Assembly (NCBI GenBank): GCA_973895155.1
Contig: OZ316893.1
Location: 16,584,645 to 16,648,644, forward strand
DNA: 64,000 bases
Reading direction: 5' to 3'
Origin: Marsupella aquatica
Lineage: Eukaryota > Plantae > Marchantiophyta
The notes under the pieces are model-generated. The model saw only the letters and a program-made list of their open reading frames with translations. It ran no database searches and was not told where the DNA came from. This document shows, one piece after another, positions 16,978-56,737 of the stretch (positions are counted from its first letter, which is position 1; every line of letters starts with the position of its first letter). A program made the translations under genes and the position numbers.

Positions 16978-16995
16978 TCCCCGGCAGCGGCGCCA
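16978..16995 (-). promoter_or_regulatory. Primer binding site of element A (tRNA-Asp type)
   Basis: TGGCGCCGCTGCCGGGGA, one mismatch to the Athila-type tRNA-Asp PBS TGGCGCCGTTGCCGGGGA; 20 nt from the LTR end. Confidence 0.85.
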
Positions 16996-20730: not shown

Positions 20731-21098
20731 TCTTTCTCTCGGACGGCCACTAATGGGACTCGCCCTCCTGAGGAGGGATTTATTTAAAAAAAAACCCCCC
20801 CCTCTCCTGACTTTGCAATGGGGGTCTCAACAATAGCTCTTGAAGCAAAACGGTAAGTCCTATGGGGCTGGTCCTGGCTAGTTTCAAGGTCCCAAAATAT
20901 TTGCCCACTTAGGTCGCCGCAAATCTTAGAACTATTATGAGAGAAAGAATATAAAGTCACCTGGGGCATCATCAACCTATAATGACGGAATTAACTAAAA
21001 ATTAAAAAATGGCTTATTTACATTGACTATTAACAAGGTATCGGCCTTTGCAACCAGTTATGTGTGACTTCCCGTGACGGGGTACCCGTCACAGTCAG

Positions 21099-29266: not shown

Positions 29267-30116
29267 ACAAAAGCAACACTTATGGTGAGGACCCGCAATG
29301 CTGAACATGTGCGGCTTGCACACAAGGCAGAGATGTTGCACCTTGAGTATGTCAGACTTGGGATCCTTTCAGCCCAATTTGCATGGTACTTCGAGTACCT
29401 TGTTGTTTCCAGGAACAACTACAGCCAGCCTCTACCTGCTTCAGTACCCTTCCCGACATCCTTGGTATTTGTGTCTCTTGTACATGACCCGCCAAAAATT
29501 AGGTGCCAAGGGTGTGTGCACAGTTGCCAATATGACTGTCTTGCCTGTAGGGCTTTTGGCCCAGAGTTGGATGACCATTCTCTTGGATGTCGATATTTGC
29601 ACAGAGCACAATGTATCATCTGGAACCACTCGCCATCCTGTAGTGTGCCTGGTGATGTCACTTAGTTGTCCTGCCCTCCCAGACCCCACCATCGGTGCGA
29701 TTGGTGTCTACACATGTTTGGATCACACGCTCTAGAGGACCACTTATCACACCGCATGCATAGACCAGAGACCATTGATCTATAACTTAACACTCTGACT
29801 TCAACACAGAGGATATTTACTTAAAATTTGATGTATGAGCAATTTTGGGTCCAGGGTTTAGGGTCAACAGTACATAACTTATCCTATTATGGCTGCACTA
29901 AGTAGAATATCCTAATTTAAGAGGTTAGCAAGCTCACTTAAAAGTCTATATTCAAATACTGCTTTCATGACTACTTTAACTTGGTGAACATTGCAACGTT
30001 CAATGAATTAATGGGCCATGTGATAACCTGCAAAATTTGATTTATGCCTAACTCATTTGTCTCAGCCACTATCATAGCCTATTTAGGATGTATAAATTAC
30101 AACACTTATCACACTG
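29267..30116. repeat. Segment homologous to 39974-40777 (CACTA-internal sequence)
   Basis: Direct alignment visible over ~0.8 kb; this copy is cut by element B after cacactg. Confidence 0.9.
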
Positions 30117-33100
30117 TGTGACATGGGTTATGTGTCACTTAATCGAGTGTAGGTCCTAGATTAGGACTTATACGGTCATTAGGACCGTAGCCGTAGCGTA
30201 GAGTAGTAGGAATAGCCGTCTTTGCCATTATGAGTAGATTAGGAGTAGGTTAGTTGACTAAATGATTATGAATTAAGGGAAGGAAATTATTACGATTGGC
30301 CGAGGTACCATGGCGGCGGCGGAGTAAAATTCCGTTAGGAGATCACGCTTGGACCGAGACACTCAACTTTGGGCCATTATCAACGACCAAAACGGCCTCA
30401 CCTTCTCACGCTCGGGCTCACCCTAGCACCTCCATAAGAGCTGAGTTGATGGCACCGCAGCCCATTTGCTCATTCATACCTTTTAGAATTCGCGGACACT
30501 GCCATTCACTCTTGCCTTTTGCTCGAATCGAGCTAACTTTTACGAGGAAATTATCGAAGGGTAAGAGCGGATTGTGGTGGGATTTAGTCAGGGCGAGTAA
30601 GGCCTCCACTAGCAAGCAAAACTGCCGGGCGGGGGCACAAACTCAACAAACCAGACTACAAAGGTTAGTATGACCCTTACAGCCTTGGGATTTTGGACCT
30701 TGTTTAGCGAGGTAGGTGCTAAGTTCTCTGAGACTTACCGGTGCTCTTGCCCCGAGAAAGCCGCTTACAAACAAAGATACGCGAAGTTGGTGGCCAAGGT
30801 AGCATAGGTTAATTGTGAGAAGACAGCCATCACCAGGGATTCGACCTACAACAAGCTGCGGGACTACATCACCAAGCTATATCTCAGCAAGGAGGGGCTT
30901 AGATCGGTAGCAGAGGCGATTCTTGAAGTCCCCGCAAAGTTCTTTAGGCTGAAGGGCAACCAGAGGCTGACTCAAGCAGAGTTTGACAAGATCCCGGGTT
31001 ACATCGACCAGCAGATTGCAGTTGAAAAGTGCCAAGAAGACATCAACAGACAACAGGAAGCGGCGCGTAATCTTACGTTCCTCGGGGAAAGCTCTAACGC
31101 CTTCAACTGGGATATGGCTACCCCGACGCCACCCCCAGCCCCTCAGCCAATGACCATCGGCGTACCACCAAACCGGTCCCAAGTCCGTCCCGTGAACAAC
31201 ACCGAGTGTTCCTCGAGTTCCGCGCATGTTAGTCCGCAACTTGAGCAACGTTGTCAGAAGCGGGCAAGGATGACGCCGGCCCCCAAACTGACGGTGCAAA
31301 CCAACGCTGCCCCTGTACCTGCCCCGGCCAACCCGCCAACTAACCACTCTTGACGATCCTCGGATAATCAATAGCCCAACTTATTACAGGTAATCCGCAT
31401 CCTCGAGGTAGTCTGGACAGCGATCAAGAAACTCGACCACGCGGATTATCTCAAGGAGCATCAGTTGGAGCAAGTTGCTCACTTGCAATGGAGACCTAAC
31501 GCAGCCGGGCCAAGGGAGATTTATGAGTTCATCTCCAATTTTGACATCGATGCGGCAACCACCAAGGTTTCAAGGCAGACCTTATCACTTACGGAGTATC
31601 GGTTGGCACAGATCTTTTGTCTGCCAACCGGGCCGGTGTCAGTTGAACTCCAAATTTGGGATAAGGTGTATACACCCCGACACTTCAAACCCGAGGGTAA
31701 GACAGACAACGGGTACAAGCAGGGGTCATGCACCAACTTAGTCTGTATGGAGCAGCTTAACTTCATATGGACTACCCTACACATAATTGAGCCACGGTCC
31801 AAGATCTCCCTCTGTACGATCGTACAGGTGGAATAGTACAAATGGCAGAACTAGGCCCAACTCTTTTGCCGTAGGTTCTCGGAGGAGCTTAGGCGGGCTC
31901 AAGGAGGTATGTCTATCGGGGAAAGGACCTACCTAGGAAGTCACATTGCCATCATCCTCGCCTAGTACAAGGCACGGCGGGAGGCCAAGGGAAAGAATAT
32001 GGCCACCTCAGCCCCGACTAGCATCGCCCCCGCTACGAAGGAGGCTACCCCAAGCAAGCGGACCACTACGCCTTGGGAAAACCCCGAGCCCATGGCCCTA
32101 ACTAATACTCCGCCACCTCCTCCCATTGAAATCCCTCCGCCCCCTTCCGTTGAGCCTCCGCTGCCCCCAGTACAACCACCCCCAATCCCTCCACCACCTG
32201 AAGAAACCTTCCTCTCCCCATTGTAGACTACGGAGGAGCTTGCCACCCCGCCCGAGGAACCACCGGTGCCCGAGAGGATGGAGGACTACCAAGTAGCCCC
32301 GGGGAGCCTACGACCTGGTCCAGAAGTTTAGCCAAACTATGTGAGGGGAGCTAGCGACGTACATTGGGCAAGAGGTCTCGGCGTACTTCCAACCAACCTT
32401 CTTCATGTTAGAGCACCAACCACGGATCGTAAGCCGCTTGGAGGAAGAACTCATCACAAAGGGGAACAAGATCAGGGCCTCCAAATGCTAGTAGAACACC
32501 TCGAAGAGGAGGCTACCACCCGCCGTGAAGAGTTAGTCCGCACCGTTGAACAATGGGAAGGACTCAACCAGGAGTTGAGCGTGGCGTAAGCAGATCTCAA
32601 GAAGTTGGATGACACTGTGCTTCAGTTGCGCTCAGAATCCTTGGCTCGGGTTACCAGCCTGACCGACCTCAACAACCAATTCCTGCAGGCAGCTCAGCAG
32701 GTGGCTAGTCTCTCCGCCGAGCGAGATAAATTGTTGGCGTAGAACCAGATCCATCGTGACTCCATTGGCCAGCTCAGCCTAGAGGTAGCACGGCTCTAGA
32801 CCGAGGCCGATGAAGCTACAAACAAGGCAGAGGAGGCGGTACGGGATAACAAGGCCTTGCAGGACCGCATTACCCTGCTCGTAAGCCAACGGGCAAGACT
32901 TGGACCCACTTCTGATCAAGGCGGCTCAAGGTCTTGCCCCGACAAGGGGACAAACCCTGGTCCGACCACAACACACACATAAGGGGTGGTTAGCAGAGGG
33001 TGTGAGCAAGCATCGCGAGAGGCAGTTGAGTCAACAACATCTTTTTGATTAAGCTTAACGATAGAATAGCTGTCATTAGGCGCCGATTAGCGGCGCAATA

Positions 33101-33978
33101 GAAAGAATCAGGACAGGATCAGTTAGGATCAGCCGATGTAGGATAGAGTCCATCAACAGACTAGAATTTTGGTCAGTATACTTAGCCATTGCCACCCCGG
33201 TCAGCGCCCCTTGCCACTGACGGTCAACCGGTCAGAAGAAGTGCGGCCGGTTAGTCAGAAGGTAGTTAGTCAGTAGGCATTACCCCAGGAGGTAGTATCT
33301 TCCGGCTCCTTTTTGCAAACATAGTATTTAGGCTTCCCCTTCCGCTGTGGGAGGGGGAGAAGACTTAGTTCACCTTAGCGCTAGAAAAGGTGAGGCACGG
33401 GGAGTCCCGGCCTGAGCAAGGTCAAAGTGCACTAAGGAGTGAGAGCCAGAGTTGAGCTTGTTGGGCAAGCACGGGGCAGGGCCTTGTAGAGACTGGGCAT
33501 TGACTGCCGTTAGGCCTGCTGACCCCTTAGAAGTTGAGTCAACTATGTAAACCGATTCGTCGTTGAGTAAAATGTAGTCTTTTCCCTTTGATTCTATCGC
33601 GAGTAACTGGTGTTGTGTGCATGCTTTGTCTGGGCAAAGGCGCCATTTGAAGTGACGTACCGGGTGCGGACCAATGGTAGGGATTGCCTCGGGTTGCATG
33701 TCACAAGGTTCTAAGTTGCGTCAATGGCTTGAAAGCCCCAAGTAGGGAGTGAGTCCGAGTCACTTACTGTGGGAATACTCAAGTGGTGGAAAACAAATAT
33801 ACCTATATGACCCGTACGAGTTACGTAAGTATTATACTAGCAAGTATATCAACTTAGCCCGGCTTAGGGCTAATCGGGACCACTACACACCTTCTTGCCC
33901 AAACCCTCACCCCTACTGGTGGTCGTGGTTACCCCAGGGAACTAACTTGGCTTTAAGGCCCGGGTTATGGGCGCGACA
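30117..33978 (+). repeat. 5' LTR of element B (~3.86 kb) containing a decayed ORF
   Basis: 30117-30660 and 32943-33862 both match the 3' LTR. The end at ..gcgcgaca 33978 is inferred from the CA dinucleotide and the downstream PBS. Confidence 0.85.
30669..32982 (+). pseudogene. Decayed LTR-embedded ORF of element B (same domain type, Pro-rich linker, coiled coil)
   Basis: Fragments QLEQVAHLQW, EIYEFISNFD, LAQIFCLP, NGYKQGSC, a PPPP stretch, then heptads; many TAG/TAA stops. Boundaries approximate. Confidence 0.6.
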
Positions 33979-34091: not shown

Positions 34092-35785
34092 ATGCCCCTT
34101 ACCCGCTCGCGATCTGCGTATTTACAACACCCGAACGGAGCATCAAGTTTGGAAGGAAATACTGCATCTGGTGGAGCGGGGAGCTCAGCTTCCCAAACGG
34201 GATCGCTTATTGTGATGGGAACCCAAGCACCAGCTACGGGAGGACCTCCACTGGTTCCGCGAGCCCCGCAGGTACCAGGTGCGTTGCAGCCCCCTGCGGC
34301 TCAGAATGTGTCATAGCGATCTTGGTTCCACTATCAACCCTTCAAGGGACGACCCATGCACGACCCCGATGAATGGCTAGTTGAGTTCGAGGCCACAGCC
34401 AAGGCAAATGGCAAGGAAGCCATTAAGCTAACCATTCTTCCAAACGTGCTACGGGGAGAAGCGCGGCCGTGGTTTAACTTGCAACCCCCCGGCTTCACGT
34501 GGGGCCAGTTCCAGACGGCATTTTTGCAAGAGTTTAGGCCCGTGAGGATCAAATCCCGGGCTTTGTAAAAAATTGGATGGATGCAGATGGGTAAGCATGA
34601 CTCATTTTGCAAATTCCTGCAGCAATTCCAGAAGGTTGCCGCCAAGATTTGGCCTAAGCCCAATGACTCTCTGTTGAGAAAATGGTTTGTCAACGCGCTA
34701 CCCCAAAAGATGGTGTTCTCAGTGCTAGAAAAAAAGACCATGGATTACCCTACAACAGGCAATCAATAGTGCAAAATCCTTTAGGGAATCGCACTACGCC
34801 TCTCAGCTTAATCAGAGGACCAAGCATAAGAAGAGCAGGAGGTATCATACCTTCAGCGATTCCGACTTTGAGTATGACAAAAAGAAAAGGAAGAAAAGAC
34901 GGCGGCATAAGAAGAAGGGGTGGTCAAGCTCTTCGTCAGACTCTGATTCAGAGTCTAGCAATTCCCTATCCAGTAGCCCGACGTTGACTGGCTCATCCTC
35001 CAGCGACATTGAGTCAGATTATCGTAACCGCCAAAGGAAGAAGGGATCACGGTCAGATACGTGTAAACATAAACCGTGATCGAAGGTCGTCACCATAGAC
35101 CCAAAGGCCATGGAGGTAGAGAAGCTGAACGAAATCATAGACCGGCTAAAAGCACTATCCGTGCATTTGGCGGAGAAACCACCAGACAAGAAGAAACCAT
35201 TGGAAACCCGAGCGCATGCTTGGTGCTCCAAGGGTTATCAGTTTGGACACATGGTGCAGGAGTGCCCAAGATGGAACATTCGTGTACACCAGATAGAGTT
35301 GGAGCCCGGACAGTCCGAGCCAGAGGGAAGCACAATGGAGTACTTCTTCAAGGATCCGGCCAAGGCGGTGTTCCAGATGAGTATGACGGGACCTCGCACG
35401 CTAAATGGCCACAGTCTAGGTTTCCATACCCCGTATCCATATCCAGCAAATGGGCGTGGCCCCCAGGTGGTTAGCAATCCAAGTATTCCACCTAGACTTG
35501 GAGTTTGGCGGACCCCGGTTTGCTATAATTGTGAAAAACCTGGTCACTTTGCCCGAGAATGCACGGAGCAACGAAAACAAGGGGATGGGAGAGCAATTCC
35601 GTTATGCCAGGTCTGTCGGACCAAAGCACATTCCATGGCAAACTGCCCCTTGGTGTTAGCCGCAAAGGCCGGAGCCATCCGAGCTACTCTACCTGCGGCC
35701 CCATCGACTACAGATGCGGTAGTACAGATGGGAATGATGGAATGGCAGGACGACGCCATCGAGTGGATCAATCTAATAGAAGTAG
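34092..35785 (+). pseudogene. gag: gag of element B (5' part, frameshifts/stops)
   Basis: DPDEWLVEFEATAKANG, CYNCEKPGHFAREC, CQVCRTKAHSMANC; homologous to gag of A; cut by the CACTA. Confidence 0.9.
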
Positions 35786-38310
35786 CACTAGTAGAAACCG
35801 GGGTAATTTAGACCATACCTTATAGGACTAAGCCCACTAAGTCCTTCTTCCATACTTTAAATGACTTGCACCCATTGCCAAGGTTTTGTTAAAGACTATA
35901 AAAGACTTTGAGTGTTTTCCGGTTTAGTTAAAGACTATGAAAAGTAACCTTGCTACTTTGTGAAGGGTGAACACTCTAGGACATCATGGGTTTTGTTCTT
36001 GGAATCACTCTAAAGGTCCACACAAAGACTAGTTTAATACAAAGTCTTACAAGGGTTCATGATAAGAGTATACTTAAGAAGGACCGGGCGACATGCTACT
36101 TTTGGGTCTAAGTGCTTAAGGACATGCCTTCTATATATCACCAACCTTAACTAACATTGCATCGTAAATATCCATGTAACGGGTACTTTTCATAACTTAG
36201 GGTACAATTGTACTAGAGGACTTAGGGTGGTTTCTAACCGGAATCGGAACTAATGCATCACTATAACCCTAGCTAGGTACAACTCCCACACCATGATATA
36301 TTCCGCATTGCCAACTAGTGTTGTTTTGACAGGGTCATGGGCACTAATTGACACAATGAACAGTCCACAACTTGATTGATTTGAGTGTAAATGATGGTGC
36401 CTTTTGATCCAAGATTAATTCCACAAGGGGGGGGGGAGGGTTAGGGGGGCCCACAACTAATTAAGTGGCCATGACTTTGTCACCAAAGGGATTTATTTAA
36501 AGTTATCCTTAACCCTCTTTAGTTTTGTGTGTTGCCTAACACTCTGGCACAAACGTACTTATTATGCTCAACGGGTCACCTCAACGGAAACGAGCTTACA
36601 TGACTGCTTGCACTAAGTATTGGGTTAGGGTGAGTGTGCTTTGGTCATCAGGTGATTATTGGGTTTTTGTGAAGGGAACTATCGAGTACTTGCGCCCCTG
36701 TGTTCGGGCCCCATTGTGCGACAGAACATTGTGCTTTGCTTCTATGAGTGGAGCATACGAGTAGGGTTTAGGGTTAACATTTTGCGAGGGAAGCTGGGAG
36801 GCGATTGTAGTCAATTGTTGCCATCCACTCCTGCAAGCGCTTTTGACAGTTCTACCTGCATGCCCCTTACAATTGTTTGGACAAAGGAGTTCAGCAAGTG
36901 GTTTGCGCTGGTTTGGGACCTTGACAGTCGTGAGGTGGTAAGGACATTGAGGCATCCCTGAGAAGCGCTTGATGGTAAGGACATTGAGGTGTTGGAGACA
37001 TTGAGGCGTTGCGGACATTGCCTTAGAGGCTCTTGAGGCCAGTGACAGCTTTTGGTGCGAAGGCAAGCGGAGATTTGTCTCCTGCCTGAGAGCTGACAGC
37101 TTCGGATTGAGACAACGTGGGCGCACCAAGATTCAGAGAAGACTGACTGGCTGGGACCGACCGGTCTTGGGAAGTTGCAGCCGTGGAGGGACCGGGAGCG
37201 CTAAGGTACATTGCAGCTACGAGCAGCAATGCACTTGCCATAGTGACATTGAACTGCCCTGAATCACCCTGGTTAGTCCAAACTTCCATTTGCAAGTTAG
37301 TTTTGGTAGTGGCTTTGGTTTTCTAGGCGGAATGAGCTCCGATGCCATGCATTAAGAATGTGGGAAATGCTATTTGTAGCTTGCTACCTCATAGTGCTAA
37401 TTTCAACTTCAGGTTTGCGTGGTTTTGGGCGATAAGCTTGTGGCTCATTCGGACTGAGTGACCTTCCTGCGGGCCCTGCCCTAAGTGTTCACACTTCTCG
37501 CCGTCCCAAACTGCGAAAGGCTTCTCCCCGTTCTGTATCCCTGCTTCAGTAATTGTATTGAGGTCTTTCAATCAGTCTCATAGGGGAGGTCATTGTCTTC
37601 TCTGTAAGTTGTTGCTCCTATCGCACTACCAAGCTTGTTGAAGGGAGCTACTATCGCGAGCTGCTACCATTGCGAGCTACTACCATCGCAAGTTGTTGAG
37701 GAGAGGGCCAGTTGTTTGCGAAAGGATTTCCAGATTGTGTCGGAGGTCCAGATTTCTTGCCTGTGGGTCCCCATGTTTGCAGTTTTTTCCTGGCTTCTTG
37801 CGCAGTGCTCCGACGTAGTACCCATGATGCTAGTCTGAACGGATTCATGAGCTGTGACTGATTTGCTGTTCAAATGATGTCTTCAACTAGAGCTACAATT
37901 AGTGTCTGCGGAGCTGCCAACCAGGTGCAGGTGTGATTGAGGTCAGTTCAACTGTTGGGTTGCCCGAATGTTCCGTTGCCATCATTTGTAACCACGAGCA
38001 ATGGACTTTAGAGGCGGGATTTTCTAGGGATTTCTGCTCAACCCTTTGCTGGCTTTCTACTTTGAGGTCTATTTTGGGGTTCGGGCAAAGGGCGGAGGGC
38101 GAAGATCAAGCATTGCAGTTTTGCTAACGCTGCATGGTGGAAATTGGACCAGCCAACTCCTTGTCTACGGTGTTGTGGAGCTGGGCGAGCTGCGACAAGG
38201 GACCAAGCCAGGCGACCTGTAAATCAAAGCCCATTGACCGCTGCTGAAGGTTTGATGTTCTATATTTGAAGCTCTCGTTTGCTTTCTATTTGTCAGTCTT
38301 TCACAGCTGC

Positions 38311-38447
38311 GCATTAGTGTTGGCCCTATCCTCCGTCCCTCTGCTAGCCTGCTACTGACATTTGGTTAATCATAGTTGTTCACTACTGTGCATTAGTGTT
38401 GGCCCTATCCTTCGTCCCTCTGCTAGCCTGCTACATTTGGTTAATCA
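38311..38447. repeat. Tandem duplication of ~60 bp
   Basis: gcattagtgttggccctatcct(c/t)cgtccctctgctagcctgcta at 38311 and 38390. Confidence 0.85.
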
Positions 38448-39973
38448 AAATGCAATGTCTGTCTGAGTGAGCTGATCATCTCCAATGTAGTATGGGCTTG
38501 GGATTTACATATATGTTTCCTGCTTCCAGCAGATAGGCAATTGCTTCCAAGCTCTTTGGTGCAGACGTCTCTATGGAATGCAATGCCCTATATGCCAGAG
38601 CTTTCATATATTGGCATGTTCACATTTGCTCTTGGAATATATGATCCCGAAAGCTTCATGAGCAGTTTATGTTCAGAATTCTGTTTATGTTATTGTTTCC
38701 GTCAATTGCAGCTTGGATTTTTGAATATATGTCCTGTCATTGATGATAGAGGGTGGTTGAGATTGGTTTTCGTTCTTCTTGGTAGTGGGTCAGTGTGTTG
38801 GCATTTTCCTCATGTCACTCATTCTCATCGGACGAGCTGCGGATTGGTACTGAATAGTCATTTAGCCTATTGCTGCCTCCCACCGCCATTGCCGATTGCC
38901 GCTATCATCGTGTATTGCTTGCTTGCTTGCCACTGCCTTTGTTGGTTGCCACCCTCTTCACACTCTCTCGCATCTATCTTCCGATATGAACGCGCAGCCA
39001 AGCCCACCAAAAGCTCTGTCCCTACAATCCCTCCCAAATCAACTTCCTTGTTTCCTGCTGCTCATGATCACCGCATTGTTCTTCCCTATTTTTGTTTACT
39101 TATTGGTCTCTCCACACTTGTTGCTTCACATGACTATTTTGCTCCTCCCTGGATCCGAACATGCCTTGTGCCCAATGCTCCCACGGTGGAGTGGGGTGGT
39201 GAATAGACGACCTCAACACCATTGCAATCACATTTGGATGGGTTAGTTTTTTGTAGCTTAAACCTGTCGGGATTTTGCGCTTGTGGCGACGCTATCCTTT
39301 CTGCCACTTCATGAGTTTGTTTATGCTGCAGTGGGCGGTCTTGCGCAACTCAATGAGCCAATTTCATTTTCCCTGTGCACTTCTATTTCTCAGAGAATTC
39401 CCTGGTCATGCTCATTTGCCCCAGAGTTAGAAAACAAAGAAGAAGAAGAGCTGACTAATTGTAATTCCAATCCATATCCTGATCGGTCAAGGATTGTGAA
39501 CTACATTGGCCTTGTCATTGGCCGAGGTCACCAAATTTTGCTTGGTTTCATTCCTGTGGAGCACTGTTGTGATGGATGAATAGTTGTCGTAGCATTCTGC
39601 AAACTCTCACGGTTTGCTTATGGCCATTATTTGCAATTTGCTGCTACTAATATGTCTCCGACTGAGCAGCATACACCGGAAGTAAGCAATAGTGGAGGTT
39701 TAACTGCACATCAACACATCCAGTGAACTACCTCTCTGCTGCTCACTAGAGGGTGAGACTTTCACTCTTTCTGGATATTGTAGTTTGTAAGCAAGTTGAT
39801 TAGGAGTGTTTCATGCTATGTTTACATTGTGACCCCTAGCTGGAACCAATGGAATGACACAGTGAGTGGGAACTGATAATTTAAGGTTGGTTGCTGTTGG
39901 TGAGGCAAGTACAGCTCCTGCTCACCTTGCTGATCGAAGGTGCTTATCAGAGGACGTGAACACACGACACTCC

Positions 39974-40777
39974 ACAAAAGCAACACTTATGGTGAGGACC
40001 CGCAATGCTGAACATGTGCGGCTTGCACGCAAGGCAGAGATGTTGCGCCTTGAGTATGTCAGACTTGGGATCCTTCCAGCCCAGTCTGCATGGTACTTTG
40101 AGTACCCAGTTGTTGCCAGGAATAACTACAGCCGCCTTGTACCTGCTTCTCCACCCTTCCCAACATCCTTGGTATTTTTGTCTCTCGTACATGACCCGCC
40201 ACAAATTAGGGCCCAAGGGTGTGTGCACAGTTGCCAGTATGACTGTCCTGCCTGTAGGGCTTCTGGCCTAGAGTTGGATGACCGTTCTCTTGGATGTCGG
40301 TTTTTTCACAGAGCACAATGTATCATCTGGAACCACTCGCCATCCTGCAGTGTGCCTGGCGATGTCACTTGTCCTGCCCTCCCAGACCCCACCACCGGTC
40401 ACTTTGGTGTCTACACATGTTTGGATCACACGCTGTAGAAGACCACTTGTCACACCGCATGCACAGACCAGAGACCATTGACCTATAACTTAACACTTTG
40501 ACTTGAACAGAGAGGATACTTACTTAAGATTTTGAATTATGAGCAATTTTGGGTCCAGGGTTTACGGTCAACAGTACATAACTTATCCTATTATGGCTGC
40601 ACTAAGTACAATATCCTAATTTAAGAGGCTAGCAAGCTCACTTAAAAGTCTCCTTTCAAAGACTGGAATTAATGGGCCATGTGATAACCTGGAAAAAGTG
40701 ATTTATGCCTAACTTATTTGTCTCATTCACTATCATAGCCTATTTAGGATGTATAAATTACAACCCTGATCACACTG
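39974..40777. repeat. Segment homologous to 29267-30116; contains a decayed Cys-rich reading frame
   Basis: Direct alignment with the other copy; the minus-strand frame has one TAG (40268) where the other copy has TGG. Confidence 0.85.
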
Positions 40778-41107
40778 CTTGATACCAATCCTGTTCAAAA
40801 AATGCCTGTTTTACATGTCACGACTGTTATATGTGATTCAAATGCATTAAATCTTGTTGCAGATCTCCTTTGGTGAATCATAGCCACAAAATTGAGGTGT
40901 AGGTGGAGCTATTGTACGAGGGGATCAGTTTTTAGTGTGGGCTCAATAAACCAAAAAGTATGTCTACTCTGCACATGTGTATGAACATTTCATTGCAGTA
41001 GCAATTGCCACTCTAGTCTATATGCTACATTGTACTTTTTGTACACTGCACTAAATTGTATTGTCTGTGCACTCTACTAAATTGTACTATCTGTCTCAAG
41101 CGTAGGC

Positions 41108-41788
41108 ATGGCACGCCCTAAAATCCGAGCCAAGAAGCGGGGGACAGAGGTGAGCAACACAGGTGTAGTTGGGCCAGATGGTAGTAACTTCTCCGCAAGT
41201 CAGATTTTCCAGAAGGCAGCTCATTGTTGTGCCATTTGTGACGATGGTGGTGGCTTAGCCATATGTGAGGGCCCTTGCATGAGGCATTTCCACCTCAACC
41301 CGGAGTCTGACCTTGCTGCAGAAAACAACTGTCCAGGGGTGGGCCTCCCGTCAGCACACCAGGGAGGCTGGATGTGCACTGATTGTTTGGAGAAGCAGGC
41401 TAAGTGTGCACAGTGTGGGAAGTTGGGGTCTTATGAGGGCTCTGTTGATGCTCCACCACTTGTTAGGAAATGCCCTGACAGATATTGTGTGAGGTTCTTT
41501 TGTTTTTCATGTTTGCCCGATCTTGCCACAGCTTGCCCACTTCATAAGTGCAAGGCATGTGGTCAGCACGATGAAGATTTCTGGGTGGACATAGTCCACT
41601 ATGTTAGGTGTCCCACCATGTGGCACTTTCATTGTTTGAAGGAGCGTCAAGCAGAAGGCTATGCTTGTGACAGACACATCTATCATCACTCTGCACATGG
41701 TGTTGATCGATGGATCTTCTATTGTCATCGCCATGCCATAGATCCTACTTTGCACACTCCCATGAGAGATCACATTTCTTGGCTTTGA
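41108..41788 (+). CDS. Stand-alone EDM2-like composite PHD-finger protein (226 aa)
   Basis: CAICDDGGGLAICEGPCMRHFH, CxxC..CAQCGKLGS, CPLHKCKAC, RCPTMWHFHCL and FYCHRHAIDPTLHTPMRDHI parallel the EDM2 PHD block as I recall it (CAICDNGG..CEGSCLRSFH, CPLHKC, IYCQEHEID...TPVRDH). N-terminal basic NLS. Confidence 0.85.
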   Translation: MARPKIRAKKRGTEVSNTGVVGPDGSNFSASQIFQKAAHCCAICDDGGGLAICEGPCMRHFHLNPESDLAAENNCPGVGLPSAHQGGWMCTDCLEKQAKCAQCGKLGSYEGSVDAPPLVRKCPDRYCVRFFCFSCLPDLATACPLHKCKACGQHDEDFWVDIVHYVRCPTMWHFHCLKERQAEGYACDRHIYHHSAHGVDRWIFYCHRHAIDPTLHTPMRDHISWL

Positions 41789-42386
41789 ACCTGAATAATG
41801 TACATGCATAGTGCACCTGATGTGGATACCTTGGAGATTGCAGACATTCCAATTTTGAGAAGAAGGACCTCTGTAGGAGAGGATGCTTAGGCAACAAGTA
41901 CCCTAAGTTCATTACTTGTTCCTGGGTACATGCCTTCAAAAACTCCCCTTAAGCCTTCTAGGAACTTTTTTAACTCTGCAATCATTTTGATCACGACTTA
42001 CATGACACTGCTTAAATTAAATCAGGACTTCTCATTATGAGCATATAAGTTACAAGGCTATTTAATTTGCGAGAATTCCCTTAAAGTGTACCAACATTTT
42101 CTATTCTCATTGAATGTCTGCCCATTTACAACATCTGTATGTGGCATCACAAAACAATTGCACTTGTCACCTTCAATATTGTCAAGGCACATATTCAAAC
42201 TATGAGGTGCATGCTTGCAGGTGTCTAGTACGTTTGTCCCAATATTTCTCCCGTTTGGAATCGGAGCAGAGACTCACCAGACGACTGGACTGGACCAAGT
42301 TATAAACGCAGCATTTTAAGGGCCCTCCGATTATCAGGTGAACGCATTATCTTCCGGTCTGCAGTGATTAGGTGGCCCGTGTGTAC

Positions 42387-43235
42387 ATGGCCTCTAGGAA
42401 ACGTACAAAGGTTGACCACCCGCCTCTGTTGGCTGGAATCAAAGCCATTTTGATTCCTGGCCACTATGGGTTCACCCAAGTGAGTTGGCCAATCGTACAA
42501 AAACGATTCTCAGAGTTCCATGGGACTGAAGTCAAGGACATCACTCCACAGACTACACATGTTGTTGCGGGGACATGGCTGGATGTGATGAACAACTGGT
42601 CATGGTCCTTCATTGATTCTGCCATTACCAACCAAGGTCTAAAAGTAGTTGAAGTCTCTTGGCTGACCGATTCTGTTAAACATAGGTGTGTACAGAGTAC
42701 TGAGCAATATGAGTTGTGGGAGAGTGAGGAGGCCACTGCAGAGGCTTTGGCTGAAAAGGAAGCCTATGAAGCAGCGGCAGAGAAACCCAACTTTGCTTCT
42801 GTCCAATATGGACCTGTTGTCAACATAGGACACCATCCTATGCGTGCAGATGCTATATTGAATGAGCATGGCAAGGAGAGAAATACCATTATGAAGGGGT
42901 TCAGTGTGGTATTTGCAGAAGAAGGAATTGGGGAGACTAAGTGCAGATTGTACAAGTCTATAGTTGTTGAGCTAGGTGGGACAGTGGAGGAGAGTCTAAC
43001 AGAAACCTCCACTCATGTTGTAGGTCTGTCATACATGAAAATATGCAGAAAATTCTTTAAGACAACAGTGCGTGATTTTGTCATGAACAACAATCTTTGG
43101 GTGCTTTCCCCTGATTGGCTTCTGGAATCAGCAGCTAGAGGGAAGCGACAGAATGCTTGGGACTTTGATATTTTTGAGGCCTGGCCCTCCAAGATTCAGC
43201 GGAGATGTATGCTTAGCAAAGGTGGGAGAGAGTGA
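42387..43235 (+). CDS. Tandem BRCT-domain protein (282 aa from first ATG)
   Basis: Two repeats: TTHVVAG..VVEVSWLTDSV and LGGTVEESL..STHVVG..VLSPDWLLES; N-terminal RKRTK NLS. Confidence 0.85.
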   Translation: MASRKRTKVDHPPLLAGIKAILIPGHYGFTQVSWPIVQKRFSEFHGTEVKDITPQTTHVVAGTWLDVMNNWSWSFIDSAITNQGLKVVEVSWLTDSVKHRCVQSTEQYELWESEEATAEALAEKEAYEAAAEKPNFASVQYGPVVNIGHHPMRADAILNEHGKERNTIMKGFSVVFAEEGIGETKCRLYKSIVVELGGTVEESLTETSTHVVGLSYMKICRKFFKTTVRDFVMNNNLWVLSPDWLLESAARGKRQNAWDFDIFEAWPSKIQRRCMLSKGGRE

Positions 43236-43375
43236 GGAGTAGGAGTCCCTCATATTTTTGTATAAATCACAATTTTGTAATAAATGTGATCCTTGAACTA
43301 ACTCATCTTGTCATGGTTGGTCGCAGTTGAAGTGATTGTTGTTTCCTGCTGCGTGGGGTGTGACTGTGAATCTAC

Positions 43376-43945
43376 TTGCTGGGCTCTGTTTGGCTGAAGA
43401 CTTTGGTGGGTATGCTGCCTCTTCCAGACCGTCAGGCCCTATGTAGGGTCCTCCTACGGGTTGCATCGTGCATGGCTACTGCTTGGGCTTACTTGTGTGG
43501 ATTGGTAACCAGACAGAGTGTAGCTCCATCCGAGATAATGCCTGCAGACCTTGGATGTGTTGTGAATGCTGTGGTGAATGAGGATGCACAGTCGGAAGAG
43601 GATATTTACTTTTCAGCAGATGAGTTAGACAAGCACGATGCTGTAGGTGGTTCCTTGTTGCCTGATTTGGCAGATGATATAGTTCTTGCACATGTCTGGC
43701 CGAGGGTTCTTGTGGTGTCTGGCGCACAAGATATCTGCAAATATAGACTAATTAGTACCCAGTGGAGGGACTTGGTAGCAACATGTGCACCATGGAGGGC
43801 ACTGCTGCCACTGCTTGTAGGCACGGATCGAAGACCACCATGGCATGAGCAGGGTTTAGACCTTGATGACTTAATGTACATGCCTGAGTACCTCAGGGCT
43901 GAGTGGCATCGACAACAGGATTGGTATCCGTATTTGATGTGGTAG
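43376..43945 (+). CDS. Small F-box-like protein (start codon uncertain)
   Basis: SLLPDLADDIVLAHVWPRV..CKYRLISTQWRDLV resembles the plant F-box consensus LxPxLPDD..RxVSxxWRxL; no kelch or LRR domain follows. Confidence 0.6.
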   Translation: MLGSVWLKTLVGMLPLPDRQALCRVLLRVASCMATAWAYLCGLVTRQSVAPSEIMPADLGCVVNAVVNEDAQSEEDIYFSADELDKHDAVGGSLLPDLADDIVLAHVWPRVLVVSGAQDICKYRLISTQWRDLVATCAPWRALLPLLVGTDRRPPWHEQGLDLDDLMYMPEYLRAEWHRQQDWYPYLMW

Positions 43946-44278
43946 TAAGATGAGGACATCTCACACCGGTCTCGCACCTGGCACCTGTGTCTATGACTAT
44001 ACATGATTGGACTCTGATATGGTCATGGATGTACGTGCAGAGGCAGTACATGTGAGGACAGCGGAGGAGTTGACACCCTCAAACATTTAGGAATTTTGTC
44101 TCATTCACTTGAGAATAGGTACATGACTCAGGCACCTATATTTTTTGTTTTTTTGTTTTTTTGGAACGTTACGTATTTTGGCAAGTACAGTCGGGGGTGA
44201 AATCCTTAACAGGAAGTGTATTTTTCACTTGCATAATAAAATGACAGGGTGCTGAGTGCTGAGTGCGTGTGTATAGTG

Positions 44279-47200
44279 ATGGCTCCAAGGTTGCCTCTTC
44301 ACAACCCATTTAGGATTAGGCATCATGATTCTAAATTGTGGATGCGTGAACAAGCCCGGGCCGCCCAAGGTAGGAGTAGGAGGATGAGATGCCCATGCAC
44401 ACAGTGCCAAGGATTCAAGTCATTGAGTTTGAACACTGTGCACCTTCACCTGCTGCGGCATGAAAGGCACCCTCGGTGGAGGGTTTGGAATGTACCAGCA
44501 GAAGAAGACTCCTCTGATGAAGAGTGGAGAGCTGACTTTGTGGATTCTAATACAGCTAGGCGTAGAGACTATGTAGAGCAGGACATAGACTGTGCAGAGG
44601 ATGGTCCTGGGGTCCAACATGAGAACGTGGATGACCAAGATGGAGATGGAGAGGCAGTCACTGAGGACGGTGGGATGGATGTCCCAAGAATGGTTCAAGA
44701 GATTTTTGAAGACCTTGATGCTTTTTACGACACAGTGGAATCAGAAGAGGACAATGAACCACAGCCACACATTGGCGACGGACAAGCTGAACCTGACTTT
44801 GACATTGGGGAAGGTGCAGCAGAGAGGGAGTGGGTGTTTGGGGGCCCAAAACACATCAAAGAAGCTTGCATTCCTATCTACGAGGGGTCGAACTGCTCCA
44901 AGCTGGGTTTTGTCGTGTTGTTGTTGAACATCTGTGGCAATCACAATGTTCCCAATATATTTGTGACAGAGTTGTTGACCTTCCTGCGCCGAAATGTGTT
45001 ACCAGATGGTAATTCAATTCCAAAAAATATGTACGAGGCTAGGAAATTGATGTCTAACCTTGGGCTGAACTATGTGTCTATTGACGCATGCCCTGATGGG
45101 TGTGTTCTCTTTCGCAAAGAGCATGCAGATAAATTGACATGCCCTCATTGTGGTAAGCACAGGTACAAGAATGTAGGGAAATGTACACACCCTGCCAAGG
45201 TTCTTCGTCATTTTCCTCTCATTCCTAGACTACAACGTCTGTTTAGATGCCCTGCCATTTCCAAGCTGATGACATGGACTCCTGATAACAAGAGCAGTGA
45301 TGGCCTGCAGCGTCACATTGGAGATTCCAACCATTGGAAATTTGTTGATGAGAGGTGGCCACAGTTTGCTGCAGAGAAGCGGAACTTTAGATTTGGTCTA
45401 TCACTGGATGGAGTAAACCCATTTGGAGACAAAAACAACCGTTATTCATGTTGGCCGGTTACGCTGCTAAATTACAACCTTCCCCCATGGATGACTACAA
45501 AGAGGTTTTTTGTCATGATGGTGCTGTTAATCCCTGGACCAGCTTCTGTGACCGAGCAATTCATAGATATCATGTTGGCTCCAGCAGTGGAAGAGTGGAA
45601 GACTTTGTGGATAGAAGGGGTGTTAACCCATGATGTTCTGAAGGGGCTTCTTCGACCCAGCCCCTTTAGACTGCATGCAATTTGTTTGCTGGATATAGCA
45701 GATTACCCAGGCCATGGCATCATATCTGGACGAGTGACAAAGGGCTATGTGGGGTGCACACCATGTGGGAAAAATGTGACAAGTGAGTGGTCGCATGCCC
45801 TGCACAGTATGAAATTTCAGGGGCATAGAAGGTATCTGCCTGTTGATCATCCTTACAGGCACACACGGTCTCAAATTGCACACTTCAACAACAAAACAGA
45901 GCTTCGTGGCCCACCACAGAGGGTCACCAGAGAGCAAGTCCTGAGGTGGGCAGCCAGGAAGGCTGATTGGGACAAGAGAAGTGCCACTGATCGAGAACCT
46001 GAGGATCCAGTGGTGAAACACGGTGTGAAAAGACAGACCTTGATGGACTTGGAGTTGGAGTACTGGAGGGTAATGTACTTAGCCTCCAGCCCCTGTATGA
46101 TTGCAATTTTAGATTGGAGCAATGGTGGATTGATGTTGGTTACAATCCTCCTATGTGGTTAATTAGTGTTTCTGTTGTTGAATTCTTTGCTTTGTGGAGT
46201 GCAGGAATTCGAGCCCAGCAAACACAATGTGGACGTCATGCACATTGAGAAAAATATTTGTGAGAGCTTGCTGAAGTTCTTGTCGGGTGAGAAAGATACA
46301 GGAGCAGTTCGAGCTGATATGCAACAGAAGGGGATTCGCCCTCACCTTTGGTTGAAGCCCCATGCAAGCAATCCCAATGTACTTCTCAAGTTCCAAGCTC
46401 CCTATGTGTGCACACAGGATGAATGGAAGACATTCTTGTATAGATTGAGCTGTCTGAAAGTGCCCTCTGGCTATGCTGGTGCCTTCAAGAAGCATATTAC
46501 AAAGAATAAACTTGGCAGTATGAAAACACATGACTACCATGTGTTGATGCAGCACATTCTGCCCCTATGCCTCAGAGGTCTCATGCAGAAACCAGTCCGT
46601 AATGTCATTCTTCGACTGTGCAATGTATTTCGCCGTATATGTGTGAAAGTGTGGGATCCCCAAGGATTGGAGCAGTTGAAGCAGGATGCTGCTTATGTCC
46701 TCTGTGACTTGGAGATATACTTCCCCCCTGCTTTCTTTGATGTTATGACTCATCTCCTAATCCATGTGGTAGAAGAGCTAGGGCAGTATGGGCCAGTCAG
46801 TACCAGATGGATGTACCCTATGGAGCGATACATGAAGTTGTTGAAAGGTCATGTGAGAACATACTACAGGCCAGAGGCTTCCATGGCATTGGGGTACATT
46901 AAGGATGAGACGTTGGGATTCCTAACAGAGTACATGGCTGGGTCTGGTGAAGCTATGACAAGAGTTTGGAAATCTGGTGAAGATGATGGAGTGAGTGGCG
47001 AGGTTGTTGAAGGTGTGGGACGTGCTGTTCAGCTGCCTGTTGCGATTCGAGACAAGGCTCATTCATATGTGCTGGCAAACACAGAGCCTATGCAACCATG
47101 GTGGAGGTGAGTGATTGAATTGACTTGCCTTTGTTGTGATGCTTCTTGTCTGTTCCAAGGGTGATCTTAGGTTGTCATGTGTTGTTTAGACTAACTATGC

Positions 47201-47978
47201 CTGTACCTCATATTGCAGGGAATATGATATGCAAAAAGCTGCACACTCTGGGCAGCAGGATCCCTTCCCACAGTTCGAGCAGTGGATTCGGGTGACAATT
47301 CGAGAGCATAGTAGACATCACCCAGATATGGAGAAGGATTTGTATCTTCTATCTGTGCCACCACGATTGTCTATTCTGACCTACAAACGGATGAGAGCTT
47401 ATGGAAATCATTATCGAGTGAGGGATGAGCAGGGTGACCATTGTGTATCATATGATTGTGGTTTGATTTCTGTGTTTGAGCAGAGAACCTCTGAAGAACA
47501 GAGGGGGTGGATGAAGATGGGTTACGTGGGGGAGTTGACCGACATTTGGGTGTTGAATTATGGTAACACAAGTGTCCCAGTGATATTGATGAAGGGATCA
47601 TGGGTGAAATCAGAGTGGCAGAGACCAAGGGCCACCATGAAGCGTGATCATGATGGGTTCTTGTTGGCCAATTTTAGGTCCAGAGTACCAGAATGGTCTG
47701 AGCCTTTTGTTTTCCCTAGCCAAGTTGAACAGGCTTTCTTTGCAGATGTGGAGGAGTCACATGGCTGGAGGGTGGTATGCCATAGCCAAGCACGGAACAG
47801 GCGGATGGATGGAAGTAAAGTAGAGTTCAGTTTGGATGACCATGCTGCATTCGAGCATCCTAGTCATGAGACTGTACTTCCAACTCGGGCAGGGACTGAC
47901 TACATCCCCTTAACATTGAGAGAGACATATGATGAACCTGGGCAAATGGAATATGATGAGGTTGATGATTTGCAATAG
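44279..47978 (+). CDS. tnpD: CACTA transposase TnpD/Tnp2, 3 exons (44279-46069, 46205-47106, 47219-47978), ~1150 aa, open
   Basis: RCPCTQC associated domain, IDACPDGC, LSLDGVNPF, NYNLPPW, DVMHIEKN, KTHDYH, WMYPMERYM, EPFVFPSQVEQAFF. Both GT-AG introns join the exons in frame. Confidence 0.93.
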
Positions 47979-48150
47979 GCAACAGCTGGCGATTGGCAAG
48001 TATGAGGTTGAGGATGACTACCTGCACAGAGTCACAGAACGGGAATTGTTGCCTGGAATGATGTTTAGGATAGTTGGATATGCATGAAATTGATTGATAC
48101 TTTGAATTTAGTGTGCTGATTTTCCCTGTTTGGTTGTGGGTGCTGTGCAG

Positions 48151-51100
48151 AAGCTATGGGGGAAGAGGGTGATGACATGGAGACAGACATGGGGCTTGGA
48201 GAGTGGGGTGAAGAGGAAAGATTGGATATGGATGGAGACCCAGATGCAGGGGGCTCACAGAAAAATGCACCTGTGCAAGATGCACAGGGCCCTCATCAAG
48301 TCCCAGGTAGGTGGGCAGCTAGAGAGAAATCACATAATCCATACCCTAGAAGGAGCCAGAGTTATTGGCAAGGGACGCCTGATAATTATGATGATGACTA
48401 TGATGGAGCAGAAGATGGATGGGATGAATATGAACACCCAGAGCGTGGTAGAGACGGGTACAGAGGGCAATGGAAAGGTGAGGAGGATGATTGGACAAGT
48501 AAGTGCCTTGTGCTAGTGATTTTGTGATGGTAGTAGAGATTTAGCTCAATATGCACTTATCTGATGTGTAGCTAGGGCAAAGAGTTTATCTTACAGGTCC
48601 ATGAGTGTGGCATGTACCTGTTGGTATGCAGACTCTGATTGGGACAATCACGAAAACAACAAAGGCCATCCACGTTCAGATAGGAGGCAATCATTCACAG
48701 GCGGGAGAAACGCCCCTAATTCATCAAGACAAAGCAATAGGACAGGTGGTCCAGAACCATCTATGCGCCAAGGGAGAGGTAACTTGGTCATTGCAGAATT
48801 GCTCTGAAGTCCATTGTATATTTGGCAGCGGGATTTATGATTCATACTTACCTAATGTAAGTGACTGTAAATGGATCCTGTAAATGTGCAGGGACTCCAG
48901 GGAGGTTTGGACAATGCAATCCAGGCCGTGGGGGGAGATCAGGCCGTGGAGGGACCCCAGGCCGTGGGGGGACACCAGGCCGTGGAGGGACACCTAGTAG
49001 CGCTTCAGGGAGTACCAAGGCAGGAGACAGTAACAAATTTGGTAAAGTAGAAGTGAATTTCGAAGGTTGGATAACTCCCACATGTGATGGTAAGAACCGT
49101 TGGCATTCTGACCTAAGAGGAGAAGTATTGCGTTGGTTAGATTTGAGCATTACAGAGTTTAGGAGTCAGAACAAAGCTGATTGGGCTGCTATCTGCAAGG
49201 ACATTCTTGAACGGTGGGAGTATGTTGGTAATGATGGTAAGGGCCCAGTTGAAGATTGCATATCAGATTATGCAATGAGGATTTTGAAACAAGAGAGGCA
49301 TAGGTTGAAAAGGATGTGGATAGACAATGGTTCTAACAGGAGAATGCCACCACCCCCATCATTGGAACTGGATCAATGGACACGGTTAATCAAAGGGTTC
49401 ATGTCGGAGGCTGGACAGAGCAAGAGTGAACTGATGTCAAATGCTCGAGGCAAAGTGAAACACCTTTCACAGGCTGGGAGAGGAAGTTATGCTCCAGTGA
49501 AAGAACAATTGGTAAGGCAGTGACATGCCTGATAGTAAGCCTCAAACTTATCATCTTGCTACCATTATTACATTTTCATTGACAATCAACACTTGGTTTC
49601 ATTCATATGTATGTTGATGTGGACTGCAGAAGAAATTGACAGGTGAAGAACCATCAGCACAAGAAGTGAGAGAGGAGTTCATGAAACAAAGGAGTGAGGT
49701 GACAAGTGTAACTTCCAAACAGGTGATTATGTTGTAATTCTGTATGTTCTGTGACTATTTGGCCTTGAGCATCAGAAAGAAATGTAGTAGGAAGTAAGCA
49801 ACCAGTTCTTGGGGACAGTTATCTGAGATATGTAAGCTGTGTTATGACAGGGAACTGTTACAACTCTCACAGAGATGTGTGAACGGTTGAAGTCATTAGA
49901 GTGTGGACTCCCTCAAGTGGAAAGTAAATTGGCTGATCGTTTGGATATTGTGGAGGCATCTGTAGCGAACCTTCTTGCATCAGTGGAATCTAATTTCAAG
50001 CTTGTGATTGAAAAATTGGGTGGTTCCCAACCAAACAATGAGGGCAACATTGTACAAAGTGTGCCCTTGTTAACAAAAAAGGGAATTGGCAAATCTGACA
50101 CAGGTATGGAAATGACACCGGCCCATTGTTCATTGTGTCCTATGTTCAAATGTTAGAAGTAAGTTTTCATGAATTGAGTGAATGGTTTGAATGCAGGAAG
50201 AGTGGAGGCAGAGAAGGACCCTGTAATCAGTAAGCAGAAGGGCAAGAAGGTTGCTGAGACAGGTAACCTGCTATGATCTAGTACATTACATTTGAAAAGT
50301 GCATGGAGTTTTGTGAAGCTTAAGCCGGTTGGAGGTAATCTTTTCTGTAAGAACTGGTTGGATGAACTGGGATCTGAAGTGACATCATGATTGATGTATC
50401 AGGTGATTCAAAGAGCAATAATGAAGAAGATGTGCCCAGTGCCTCAGTGACCATAGCCAAGGAGGTATCAGGTAAGCTGATGCTTTAAATTCCTCTATAT
50501 GAATGTTGAGCAACAATTCAGTGGTTAATAGATTCAACGTGAATATTGTGGTGTGTTTATTGATCAACAGAAGCAGACATGGAGCATATGGCAATGGCAA
50601 AGAAGGGGAAGAAGGCTGTTCATAATGGTAAGGAGATAGTGACAACTTTGTGGTTGGTGACATGTACATTTAGCACATGTGATGAGTGATTCACTTATGT
50701 TGGACATGACACTGAATTGTAGTTGATGCAGAGTTGACAGACTCTCAACCAAGTGGGACAAGGGTGAAGCGACGTCGAAACTTGGGTGCAACATTGGATG
50801 CAAGTAAGATTGTAGATGCTTCAATTGAAGCAAGTACAATGTTGGCAGATACTGAGATGATGTCGCAGGGAAATCCTGCTACACAATCAGAAGTGTCAAA
50901 TATGGATGCAGATTCTTTGAAGAAGAGTGTAGCCAATTCTCGATCACCAGCACAAAACACTCGTGCCAAAGTCATGACTCGCAACCAAGGTATGAATAAT
51001 GTCATGTATAAGCCACCCAGGAAAGCCAAGAAAAACAGCCAGGGTAAGGTGGAGGTGATAGCCACAGCAGAGCCAGTCCATAATCTTCTATCATGGGAGG

Positions 51101-51327
51101 ATGACTCGCAGGTATGTGTGGGTACAGGCATTTTGCGACCGGATCATGCAAAATTCCATGGCAAAGTGGTCCCGGATGACCATGTAGTAGTGCTGTTGAC
51201 TACAGTGATTGTATCTGATTGTAATTTGCCATTTCCGAATAGAGACGATGATCCACCTCAGGAAATAATTGCAGATGCAGTAGGATCTCTTGTGCTCTGG
51301 CCATCAGAGTGTGTTAGTCTGCAGTGA
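48151..51327 (+). CDS. tnpA: Multi-exon CACTA TnpA-like gene (exon structure partly inferred)
   Basis: Exon 48892-49511 has the Ptta/En-Spm motif PPP..DQWTRLI..KSELMSNAR..GRGSYA; last exon has FHGKVVPDDHVVV..LPFP..AVGSLVLWP; several short GT-AG-bounded exons between them. Confidence 0.8.
48921..48993 (+). repeat. 18-bp tandem repeat encoding GRGG(T/R)(P/S) x4
   Basis: caggccgtgg(g/a)ggga.. repeated four times within the TnpA exon. Confidence 0.85.
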
Positions 51328-52157
51328 CTGAATGCAAGTGTAGATAGAATCATGTGAATTGTGTCACATTTTGACATTGCCTTGGAAAGATCCAAGAAAT
51401 ATCTGTACCAATTTTTCCATTTGGTAAAGAGGATGAAGGAGCCGTTGTGTGTGACATTGATATTTCTGAATTCTGTATGTATGAAACAATTGATTGATGT
51501 CAAACTATGGCTCTATGGTGATTGTCTATGATACTTGAATCTGTTTTGTATCATTTCAGTATTAGTGTGTATGGTATAGAGGAATACTTTGTGACCTTCT
51601 TTGTAGTCTATGAAGTTTGAATCTGTGAATTCATATTAGTGTACATGGTATAGAAGATGGCTTTCTGAAACTATGTATTCTAATGTTAACATGATGAATG
51701 GTGAACTTATAGAGTGAGTTCATTCAAGTACACAATAAAACATGAATGCAATATGTTATTTGTGCACAAGAGTGGGTTCATTCCAAGTAGTATAGTGGGG
51801 TCTTCATCACTCATATCCAGTTGACATGAAAGACTTATACATACCCCACAAAGTATATTTAAAGACTACCCTCCATAACCTTTTTAGTCGTTCCCAACGA
51901 TTCACCATCTCAGCCCATAAAAGACTGAAAATGACTCACCAAAGCTACCCACACAAAGACTAAAATAGACTGAAAATCCAGTCTATTAAACGACTTATAA
52001 ACCAGTTCTATAAAGGACTCAGTTGATTATAGTAACAAAACATACGACTCGCAGTCCTATAAAGGACTGGAGTCCTTCCCAGTCGTTTCCAAGTCATATA
52101 CGGTACTGAATAGTCGTTTAATGGGGTCTAAATACCCCCCAGTTTCTACTAGTGTAG

Positions 52158-56700: not shown

Positions 56701-56737
56701 TGTTTGCAAGGACGCTTCACACTTGAGTGGGGAGCTA

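Follow-up and report, generated by a model that had tools for sequence, protein, structure and literature searches.

A CACTA transposon of Marsupella aquatica with three conserved open reading frames, probably accessory genes, encoding an EDM2-derived PHD module, a twin-BRCT protein and a probable F-box protein

The window analysed here, a stretch of 64,000 nt of Marsupella aquatica DNA (Marchantiophyta; assembly GCA_973895155.1, contig OZ316893.1, positions 16,584,645 to 16,648,644 of the forward strand), contains a CACTA transposon that carries three short open reading frames (ORFs) ahead of its transposase gene TnpD. ORF1 encodes a stand-alone PHD module of the EDM2 type, ORF2 a protein with two BRCT domains and ORF3 a probable F-box protein. 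We consider it likely, with a probability of roughly 0.75, that the three ORFs are selected accessory genes of this CACTA lineage. The cargo set is real, conserved and apparently undescribed. All positions given below are those of the window.

The element is a CACTA transposon by its terminal inverted repeats (TIRs), its target-site duplication (TSD) and its TnpD. It measures 16,369 bp (35786-52154) and is bounded by a perfect 13-bp inverted repeat, whose left copy (35786-35798, + strand) starts with CACTA and whose right copy lies at 52142-52154 on the - strand, and by a TAG duplication at 35783-35785 (left) and 52155-52157 (right). The inverted-pair search listed 39 CACT/TAGTG pairs for the window, of which this one is the longest and the only one bearing a TSD. 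Short putative subterminal repeats follow the left TIR and are common to the right end, one 7-mer being counted four times at each end. The initial annotation had described intact TIRs and TSD enclosing three co-oriented, intron-free frames before an open TnpD, and the description is accurate: ORF1 (41108-41788), ORF2 (42387-43235) and ORF3 (43412-43945) are each a single ATG-to-stop frame on the + strand. TnpD (44279-47978, + strand) begins 333 nt after the end of ORF3, has predicted exons at 44279-46069, 46205-47106 and 47219-47978, and is open for 1150 aa once the two predicted GT-AG introns (46070-46204 and 47107-47218) are removed. Its product matches the Pfam families Transposase_21 (E 1e-59), DUF4218 and DUF4216 and carries DG.NP, DYPG, DVMH and MER motifs. 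Downstream, a predicted multi-exon TnpA-like region (48156-51327, + strand) contains a Transposase_24 match at 49275-49523 (E 0.002, below the Pfam cut-off).

ORF1 encodes 226 aa with a basic N-terminus, and three NSD-type PHD models match it below the Pfam cut-off (E 3e-4 to 6e-3). When metagenome contigs were scanned with the ORF1 alignment, 221 pattern matches reduced to 11 loci, namely 8 EDM2-like sequences and 3 generic PHD proteins; none of the 11 was seen to be transposon-borne in the flanks read. Residues 41-225 of ORF1 align with one of these sequences, L001, at 29% identity (E 5e-18). L001 is a full-length protein of 1305 aa with an RFD domain, presumably an EDM2 feature, ahead of its PHDs; this domain, together with an architecture matching the published one, leads us to regard it as a probable EDM2 homologue. 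The published architecture consists of 2.5 atypical PHDs, PGR and methyltransferase-like domains (PMC7529245; here and below, statements on published work refer to the accessible parts of the papers cited). ORF1 covers the entire PHD module: its end coincides precisely with the TPxRDHI motif, the last element of the module in L001. Similar start and stop places are seen in five relatives that are likewise stand-alone proteins, 217-245 aa long and 36-81% identical to ORF1. Of the 21 Cys residues, these relatives keep 21, 21, 19, 19 and 17, and of the non-Cys residues 79, 72, 49, 34 and 31%, respectively. All six stand-alone proteins have a PHD2 linker that falls short of the one in L001-L003 by about 21 aa, and a Cys in place of one His ligand.

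Judged by alignment and architecture, ORF1 is derived from the EDM2 PHD module, yet it is no EDM2 orthologue. It resembles EDM2 in the full, atypical NSD-type PHD repeat and the C-terminal motif, at about 30% identity, and differs from it in lacking the RFD, PGR and methyltransferase-like parts around the repeat, in lacking introns, in the shorter linker and substituted ligand, and in having no acidic residue before PHD1. Other short EDM2-like proteins with little beyond the PHD module (L002, L003, L005 and L007) occur in the metagenome collection. In viral contigs, none of the 42 pattern matches obtained with the PHD alignment was upheld. The AlphaFold models of ORF1 and ORF2 are of low confidence (pLDDT 40.8 and 32.2, respectively).

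ORF2 encodes 282 aa with BRCT domains at about residues 13-110 and 166-262, separated by a long linker; the Pfam BRCT model matches above its cut-off (E 5e-14) in two stretches. A profile search over 1.84 billion representatives returned 23 matches, five of which were judged to lie outside the twin-BRCT family and were omitted from the family profile. From the matches and their cluster members we recovered eight further proteins of 264-321 aa with two BRCTs only, 17-60% identical to ORF2; shorter single-domain BRCT pieces were also among the matches. In the collection of genome contigs, a BRCT alignment scan gave 75 pattern matches, of which none was upheld. The initial annotation took the tandem BRCT for a phosphopeptide binder. 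This reading of ORF2 is unsupported, because the pocket of BRCA1 is not kept and the two repeats are about 55 aa apart: in a weak alignment to BRCA1 (E 0.15), S1655 and K1702, which we take to be the phosphate-pocket positions (Ser-Gly and Thr-x-Lys, first repeat), correspond to Tyr27 and Ser74. Both the residues and the linker thus set ORF2 apart from the BRCA1 tandem BRCT.

The second BRCT of ORF2 seems instead most like that of DNA polymerase lambda (Pol-lambda). Among the five matches outside the family, P0032 is identified as a Pol-lambda BRCT by its match to 2jw5 (E 2e-17), P0027 and P0029 group with it in the tree with a support of 0.99, and the sole PDB match of P0031 is Pol-lambda (E 0.2). 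The family profile aligns to P0031 at 97.5% and to P0032 at 95.7%, and also, at 92.9%, to a TopBP1-like protein that is another of the outside-family matches. ORF2 shares with Pol-lambda the BRCT fold motifs and the GIG..(R/K)..L(F/Y) helix start in its second BRCT, and differs from it in having two BRCT copies and no polymerase domain. Residues R57, L60 and F61 of Pol-lambda, which contact Ku (PMC12056208), align to K185, L188 and Y189 in this second domain. A Pol-lambda origin is nevertheless only favoured, because the PDB scores of the family profile tie among Pol-lambda, BRCA1 and Rtt107, the BRCT tree leaves the donor of ORF2 unsettled, and the equivalents of R57 and L60 are not conserved across the wider twin-BRCT family.

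ORF3 encodes 177 aa with an acidic stretch and an F-box-like motif at about residues 80-125. Its initial assignment as an F-box protein stood in part: ORF3 itself has no Pfam match at E 0.1, while three relatives, 51-55% identical to it, match F-box or F-box-like models below the cut-off (E 1e-3 to 0.08; 13-19 bits against cut-offs of 20.5-24.3). In the ESM Atlas, F-box clusters were retrieved for ORF3 at 0.86-0.91 and the ten best family-bearing matches fall in the F-box family or clan, an agreement that one third of shuffled proteins also reach in this way. PDB F-box matches were found at E 0.7-0.9. Behind the F-box-like motif, about 50 aa of C-terminal tail show the same degree of conservation as the motif itself and match no family. 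Overall, ORF3 is a probable F-box protein.

The association of the three ORFs with the element was followed in public sequencing runs. Ten of the 12 listed runs, from eight studies and six coded organisms, contain the stretch or part of it, and none is recorded as RNA. Contigs of seven runs were aligned; X9 and X10, with 12 and 7 contigs holding scraps of the cassette only, were not used to score presence or absence. In run X1, contig depth, which is not equivalent to copy number, reaches 2,559-5,779 in the cassette bins and 2,092-2,638 in the TnpD bins, compared with 300-426 at 36634-38901, and runs X2 and X5 show the same pattern, with similar depth over cassette and TnpD. In X6 (depth 362-393), several contigs together, although no single one across the whole cassette, cover the passage from the end of ORF1 into the first spacer, ORF2, the passage from the end of ORF2 to ORF3, and that from the last spacer into TnpD. 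A further X6 contig of 1381 nt, only about 79% alike, runs from ORF2 to the 3′ end of ORF3 and on into the spacer on the TnpD side; X1 has one of its joints too, at a depth of 1,799. The contig represents a second, diverged family with the same ORF2-ORF3 order. In X7, deep diverged matches were found on ORF1 (up to 5,159), on the end of ORF2 with the short ORF2-ORF3 spacer, on ORF3 and on TnpD, and the first spacer has a depth of 0-7. Loose contig ends in X7, X9 and X1 extend the reading frames with many third-position changes, as judged by eye. Taken together, these alignments show that the ORFs travel with this CACTA family. A TnpD scan of viral contigs yielded seven pattern matches, none of which was upheld.

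A piece of the ORF2-ORF3 spacer (43236-43411) is itself conserved in the diverged families, with deep X7 matches at 43166-43393 and a match in X6 record 11; it may represent a common 3′ end or a promoter signal.

Several observations weigh against the three ORFs being selected accessory genes. First, purifying selection at the DNA level is suggested but the test is weak. Among the 40 differences displayed out of 239, which were chosen for support, 26 are coding, with 11 synonymous and 15 replacement changes (ORF1 7/12, ORF2 2/2, ORF3 2/1). The resulting omega of 0.38-0.48 (p 0.015-0.054, depending on transition bias) is in line with the expectation of a dN/dS below 1. However, a count by hand gives a similar density for the 14 spacer differences (about 1,200 nt) and the 15 replacement differences (about 1,600 sites), and the test is not clean because of this density and of the way in which the differences were chosen. 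Second, the dominant X6 subfamily has an ORF3 frameshifted by the loss of 43 nt (43576-43618), which recurs in X2 and X5, and a low-depth deletion of 123 nt affects ORF3 in X1. The 43-nt deletion breaks the frame from the first ATG, yet it leaves the F-box core; in this copy there is an ATG at 43555 whose frame would match that of the core. Third, ORF1 of this copy has Tyr165 in place of a conserved PHD Cys, for which a Cys codon is found in every covering contig of five runs; this ORF1 copy is therefore slightly decayed. Moreover, the acidic residue that precedes the first PHD Cys in L001-L003 and in AIRE, and has a role in H3K4 binding, is absent from the six stand-alone proteins, so that H3 binding by ORF1 may have changed. 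Finally, cluster look-ups of the distant relatives of the ORFs, which are known as protein sequences, gave no accession placing them on one shared contig.

Part of this evidence would also be expected if the ORFs were neutral Pack-CACTA cargo, i.e., host fragments captured by chance and open only through the youth of the family. The close family is indeed young (0-2 differences in X1 contigs of 679-1644 nt), the selection test is weak, damaged copies exist, and capture by Pack-CACTA elements is a known process (PMC13317346). On the other hand, ORF1 is only about 30% identical to the host-type EDM2 proteins found, and yet whole domains, one stop position and the zinc ligands are kept among relatives at 36-81% identity; in addition, 12 of the 19 indels were displayed, and the lengths of the three in ORF2 add up to multiples of three, unlike those of 8 of the 9 in the spacers. 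We therefore regard neutral cargo as very improbable. With relatives at 36-81% (ORF1), 17-60% (ORF2) and 51-55% identity (ORF3), whole domains and retained zinc ligands, the proposal that these are not random captured fragments was borne out, and the near-identity to recently captured host exons that would have spoken against it was not seen with the host-type proteins found. The comparisons support the interpretation of the ORFs as old, conserved, stand-alone interaction modules rather than recent random captures.

It is also conceivable, if unlikely, that the ORFs come from older mobile gene families moving among transposon types, of which only some (ORF1 and ORF2) matter here, the trio not forming one unit. 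The diversity of the twin-BRCT family extends far beyond the reach of the linkage data, ORF3 is frameshifted in an amplified subfamily, the deep X7 matches are patchy over ORF1, the end of ORF2 and ORF3, and what lies upstream in a neighbouring CACTA remnant is another gene, for a putative methyltransferase. Against such independence stands the ORF2-ORF3 order kept in the 79% family of X6, with the same joint in X1.

As for the function of these accessory genes, the initial annotation had proposed counter-silencing, and this idea gains a specific candidate because ORF1 corresponds to the EDM2 PHD module. Chromatin marked by H3K9me2 is bound by EDM2, which keeps polyadenylation from occurring prematurely in heterochromatic sequence (PMC7529245, PMC10241880). 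In transposon sequence within heterochromatin, EDM2 acts with ASI1/IBM2 and AIPP1/EDM3 to suppress both polyadenylation at proximal sites and the release of RNA polymerase II (Pol II) (PMC7529245, PMC10241880, PMC9292364). Its effect on transposons is two-way, since EDM2 loss lowers COPIA4 RNA and raises Mu1 RNA (PMC3632883). In addition, H3K9 methylation stays on Spm elements under activation by TnpA (10.64898/2026.08.24.746577). Given such persistent methylation and a long spliced TnpD/TnpA transcript, an EDM2-like reader of its own would benefit the element. The ORF1 protein could bind heterochromatic nucleosomes or EDM2 partners, as adaptor or competitor, and thereby let Pol II read through the H3K9me2-coated element, so that no early polyadenylation cuts short the long spliced TnpD/TnpA RNA. 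ORF2, as a Pol-lambda-like BRCT protein without polymerase, might bind Ku at excision breaks and bias end joining, and ORF3 might join SCF by way of Skp1, serving there as an adaptor or a decoy. Since the three proteins would work in trans, damaged copies could still spread. That the ORFs are effector-less mimics of host proteins, keeping the element transcribed and shaping break repair, is a tentative proposal, to which we give somewhat less than even odds. The fully specified version, a domesticated kit in which an EDM2 PHD mimic makes use of the heterochromatin read-through complex of the host or competes with it, Ku-dependent repair is steered by a mimic of the Pol-lambda BRCT, and the third member is an SCF adaptor, is more doubtful.

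Selection on the ORFs could also reflect a role in target choice or in the transpososome, with the PHD protein tethering TnpD to chosen chromatin (e.g., other repeats), the BRCT and F-box proteins controlling the partners or turnover of TnpD, and no anti-silencing role. This reading fits all the conservation data equally, TnpA already serves CACTA elements as an anti-silencing factor, and this copy is inserted inside another transposon. However, a single insertion site weighs little in a repeat-rich genome, ORF1 is a separate protein unfused to TnpD, and what was acquired is the module of one particular protein, the read-through factor EDM2. We thus consider a role in targeting rather improbable, and the mimicry of host read-through and repair proteins remains our working proposal for the accessory genes.

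The transposon into which the element has inserted is a Ty3-type retrotransposon (30114-58199, + strand), whose gag frame it interrupts and whose long terminal repeats (LTRs; 30114-33862 and 56735-58199) are 91-93% alike. Within the CACTA element, a left internal segment without assigned strand (36100-39400) lies outside the common family body by contig depth: it is several-fold rarer than the body in four runs, and in X1 its depth at 36634-38901 compares with 2000-5800 across 39469 to 51942. The copy under study may thus be a hybrid or the bearer of a private capture at 36100-39400. A second segment upstream of the cassette (39974-40777, + strand) contains a 149-aa frame (39989-40438) and has the highest contig depth of the whole element in X1 and X2. 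An 87% copy of it lies at 29267-30116, directly after the TnpD remnant of another CACTA, and is cut by the Ty3 LTR. We dropped this frame as a fourth gene: it has no Pfam match, the second copy has a 4-nt insertion, and the 13 synonymous and 26 replacement differences give no codon-selection signal, with no frame standing out.

About 4 kb upstream of the broken TnpD of this other CACTA (28030-29141), an intron-containing remnant (22884-24379, + strand) matches N6_N4_Mtase above the Pfam cut-off (E 7e-8, frame 23741-24376, residues 82-136). Possibly this is CACTA cargo encoding a DNA methyltransferase; the ends of its element were not found. N4-methylcytosine (4mC) methyltransferases are known from Marchantia (10.1101/2021.02.12.428880). 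The window also contains a young Ty3 element (6271-21093, - strand) with long open gag and pol frames and 4.1-kb LTRs that are 98.7% alike, each enclosing a 623-aa open frame (7382-9253 and 18127-19998), and a 475-aa open frame without Pfam match (60095-61522, + strand) with short tandem repeats on either side (about 59880-60000 and 62860-62975).

In the accessible full-text literature, a scope that leaves out repeat databases and subscription journals, we found no CACTA with EDM2-type PHD, BRCT or F-box genes, and the terms PHD, BRCT and F-box do not occur in the main texts of PMC13547354 and 10.64898/2026.08.24.746577. The element resembles other CACTA (En/Spm) transposons in its CACTA TIRs, 3-bp TSD, putative subterminal repeats and predicted spliced TnpD followed by a putative TnpA-like gene, and differs from them by the three extra conserved intron-free genes upstream of TnpD. 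With Pack-CACTA elements it shares host-derived sequence within CACTA ends, and the rare left segment of 3.3 kb may be a capture of that kind; on the other hand, it has its own open TnpD and carries whole, deeply diverged domains in place of fresh gene fragments. Membership of this non-autonomous class, defined by recent host fragments, does not fit with the open TnpD and with cargo about 30% identical to the host-type proteins found.

The closest parallels in kind are VANC and KIU, a VANC bearing Ulp1, of VANDAL Mutators and TnpA of Spm, which are likewise transposon-encoded accessory proteins; for the ORFs described here, action in trans is proposed. KIU exemplifies a captured host domain (Ulp1) retained for the use of the element (PMC13317346, 10.64898/2026.08.24.746577). 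VANC and TnpA act on DNA, recognising motifs in it and causing hypomethylation, whereas ORF1-ORF3 are predicted protein-binding modules in which no DNA-binding domain was found. As far as the accessible literature describes them, the plant counter-silencing proteins VANC, TnpA and the AtMu1 transposase act via DNA motifs and demethylation. A transposon-borne EDM2 reader, if true, would represent a different counter-silencing route, through heterochromatic read-through. Furthermore, dissection of the AAE complex could draw on ORF1 as a minimal EDM2 module provided by nature, and the stand-alone twin BRCT would give access to the question of how cut-and-paste elements influence end joining. Finally, the three-part mimic kit, if it exists, would place anti-silencing at RNA processing and protein mimicry, and not at the DNA-motif-guided demethylation of the known systems.

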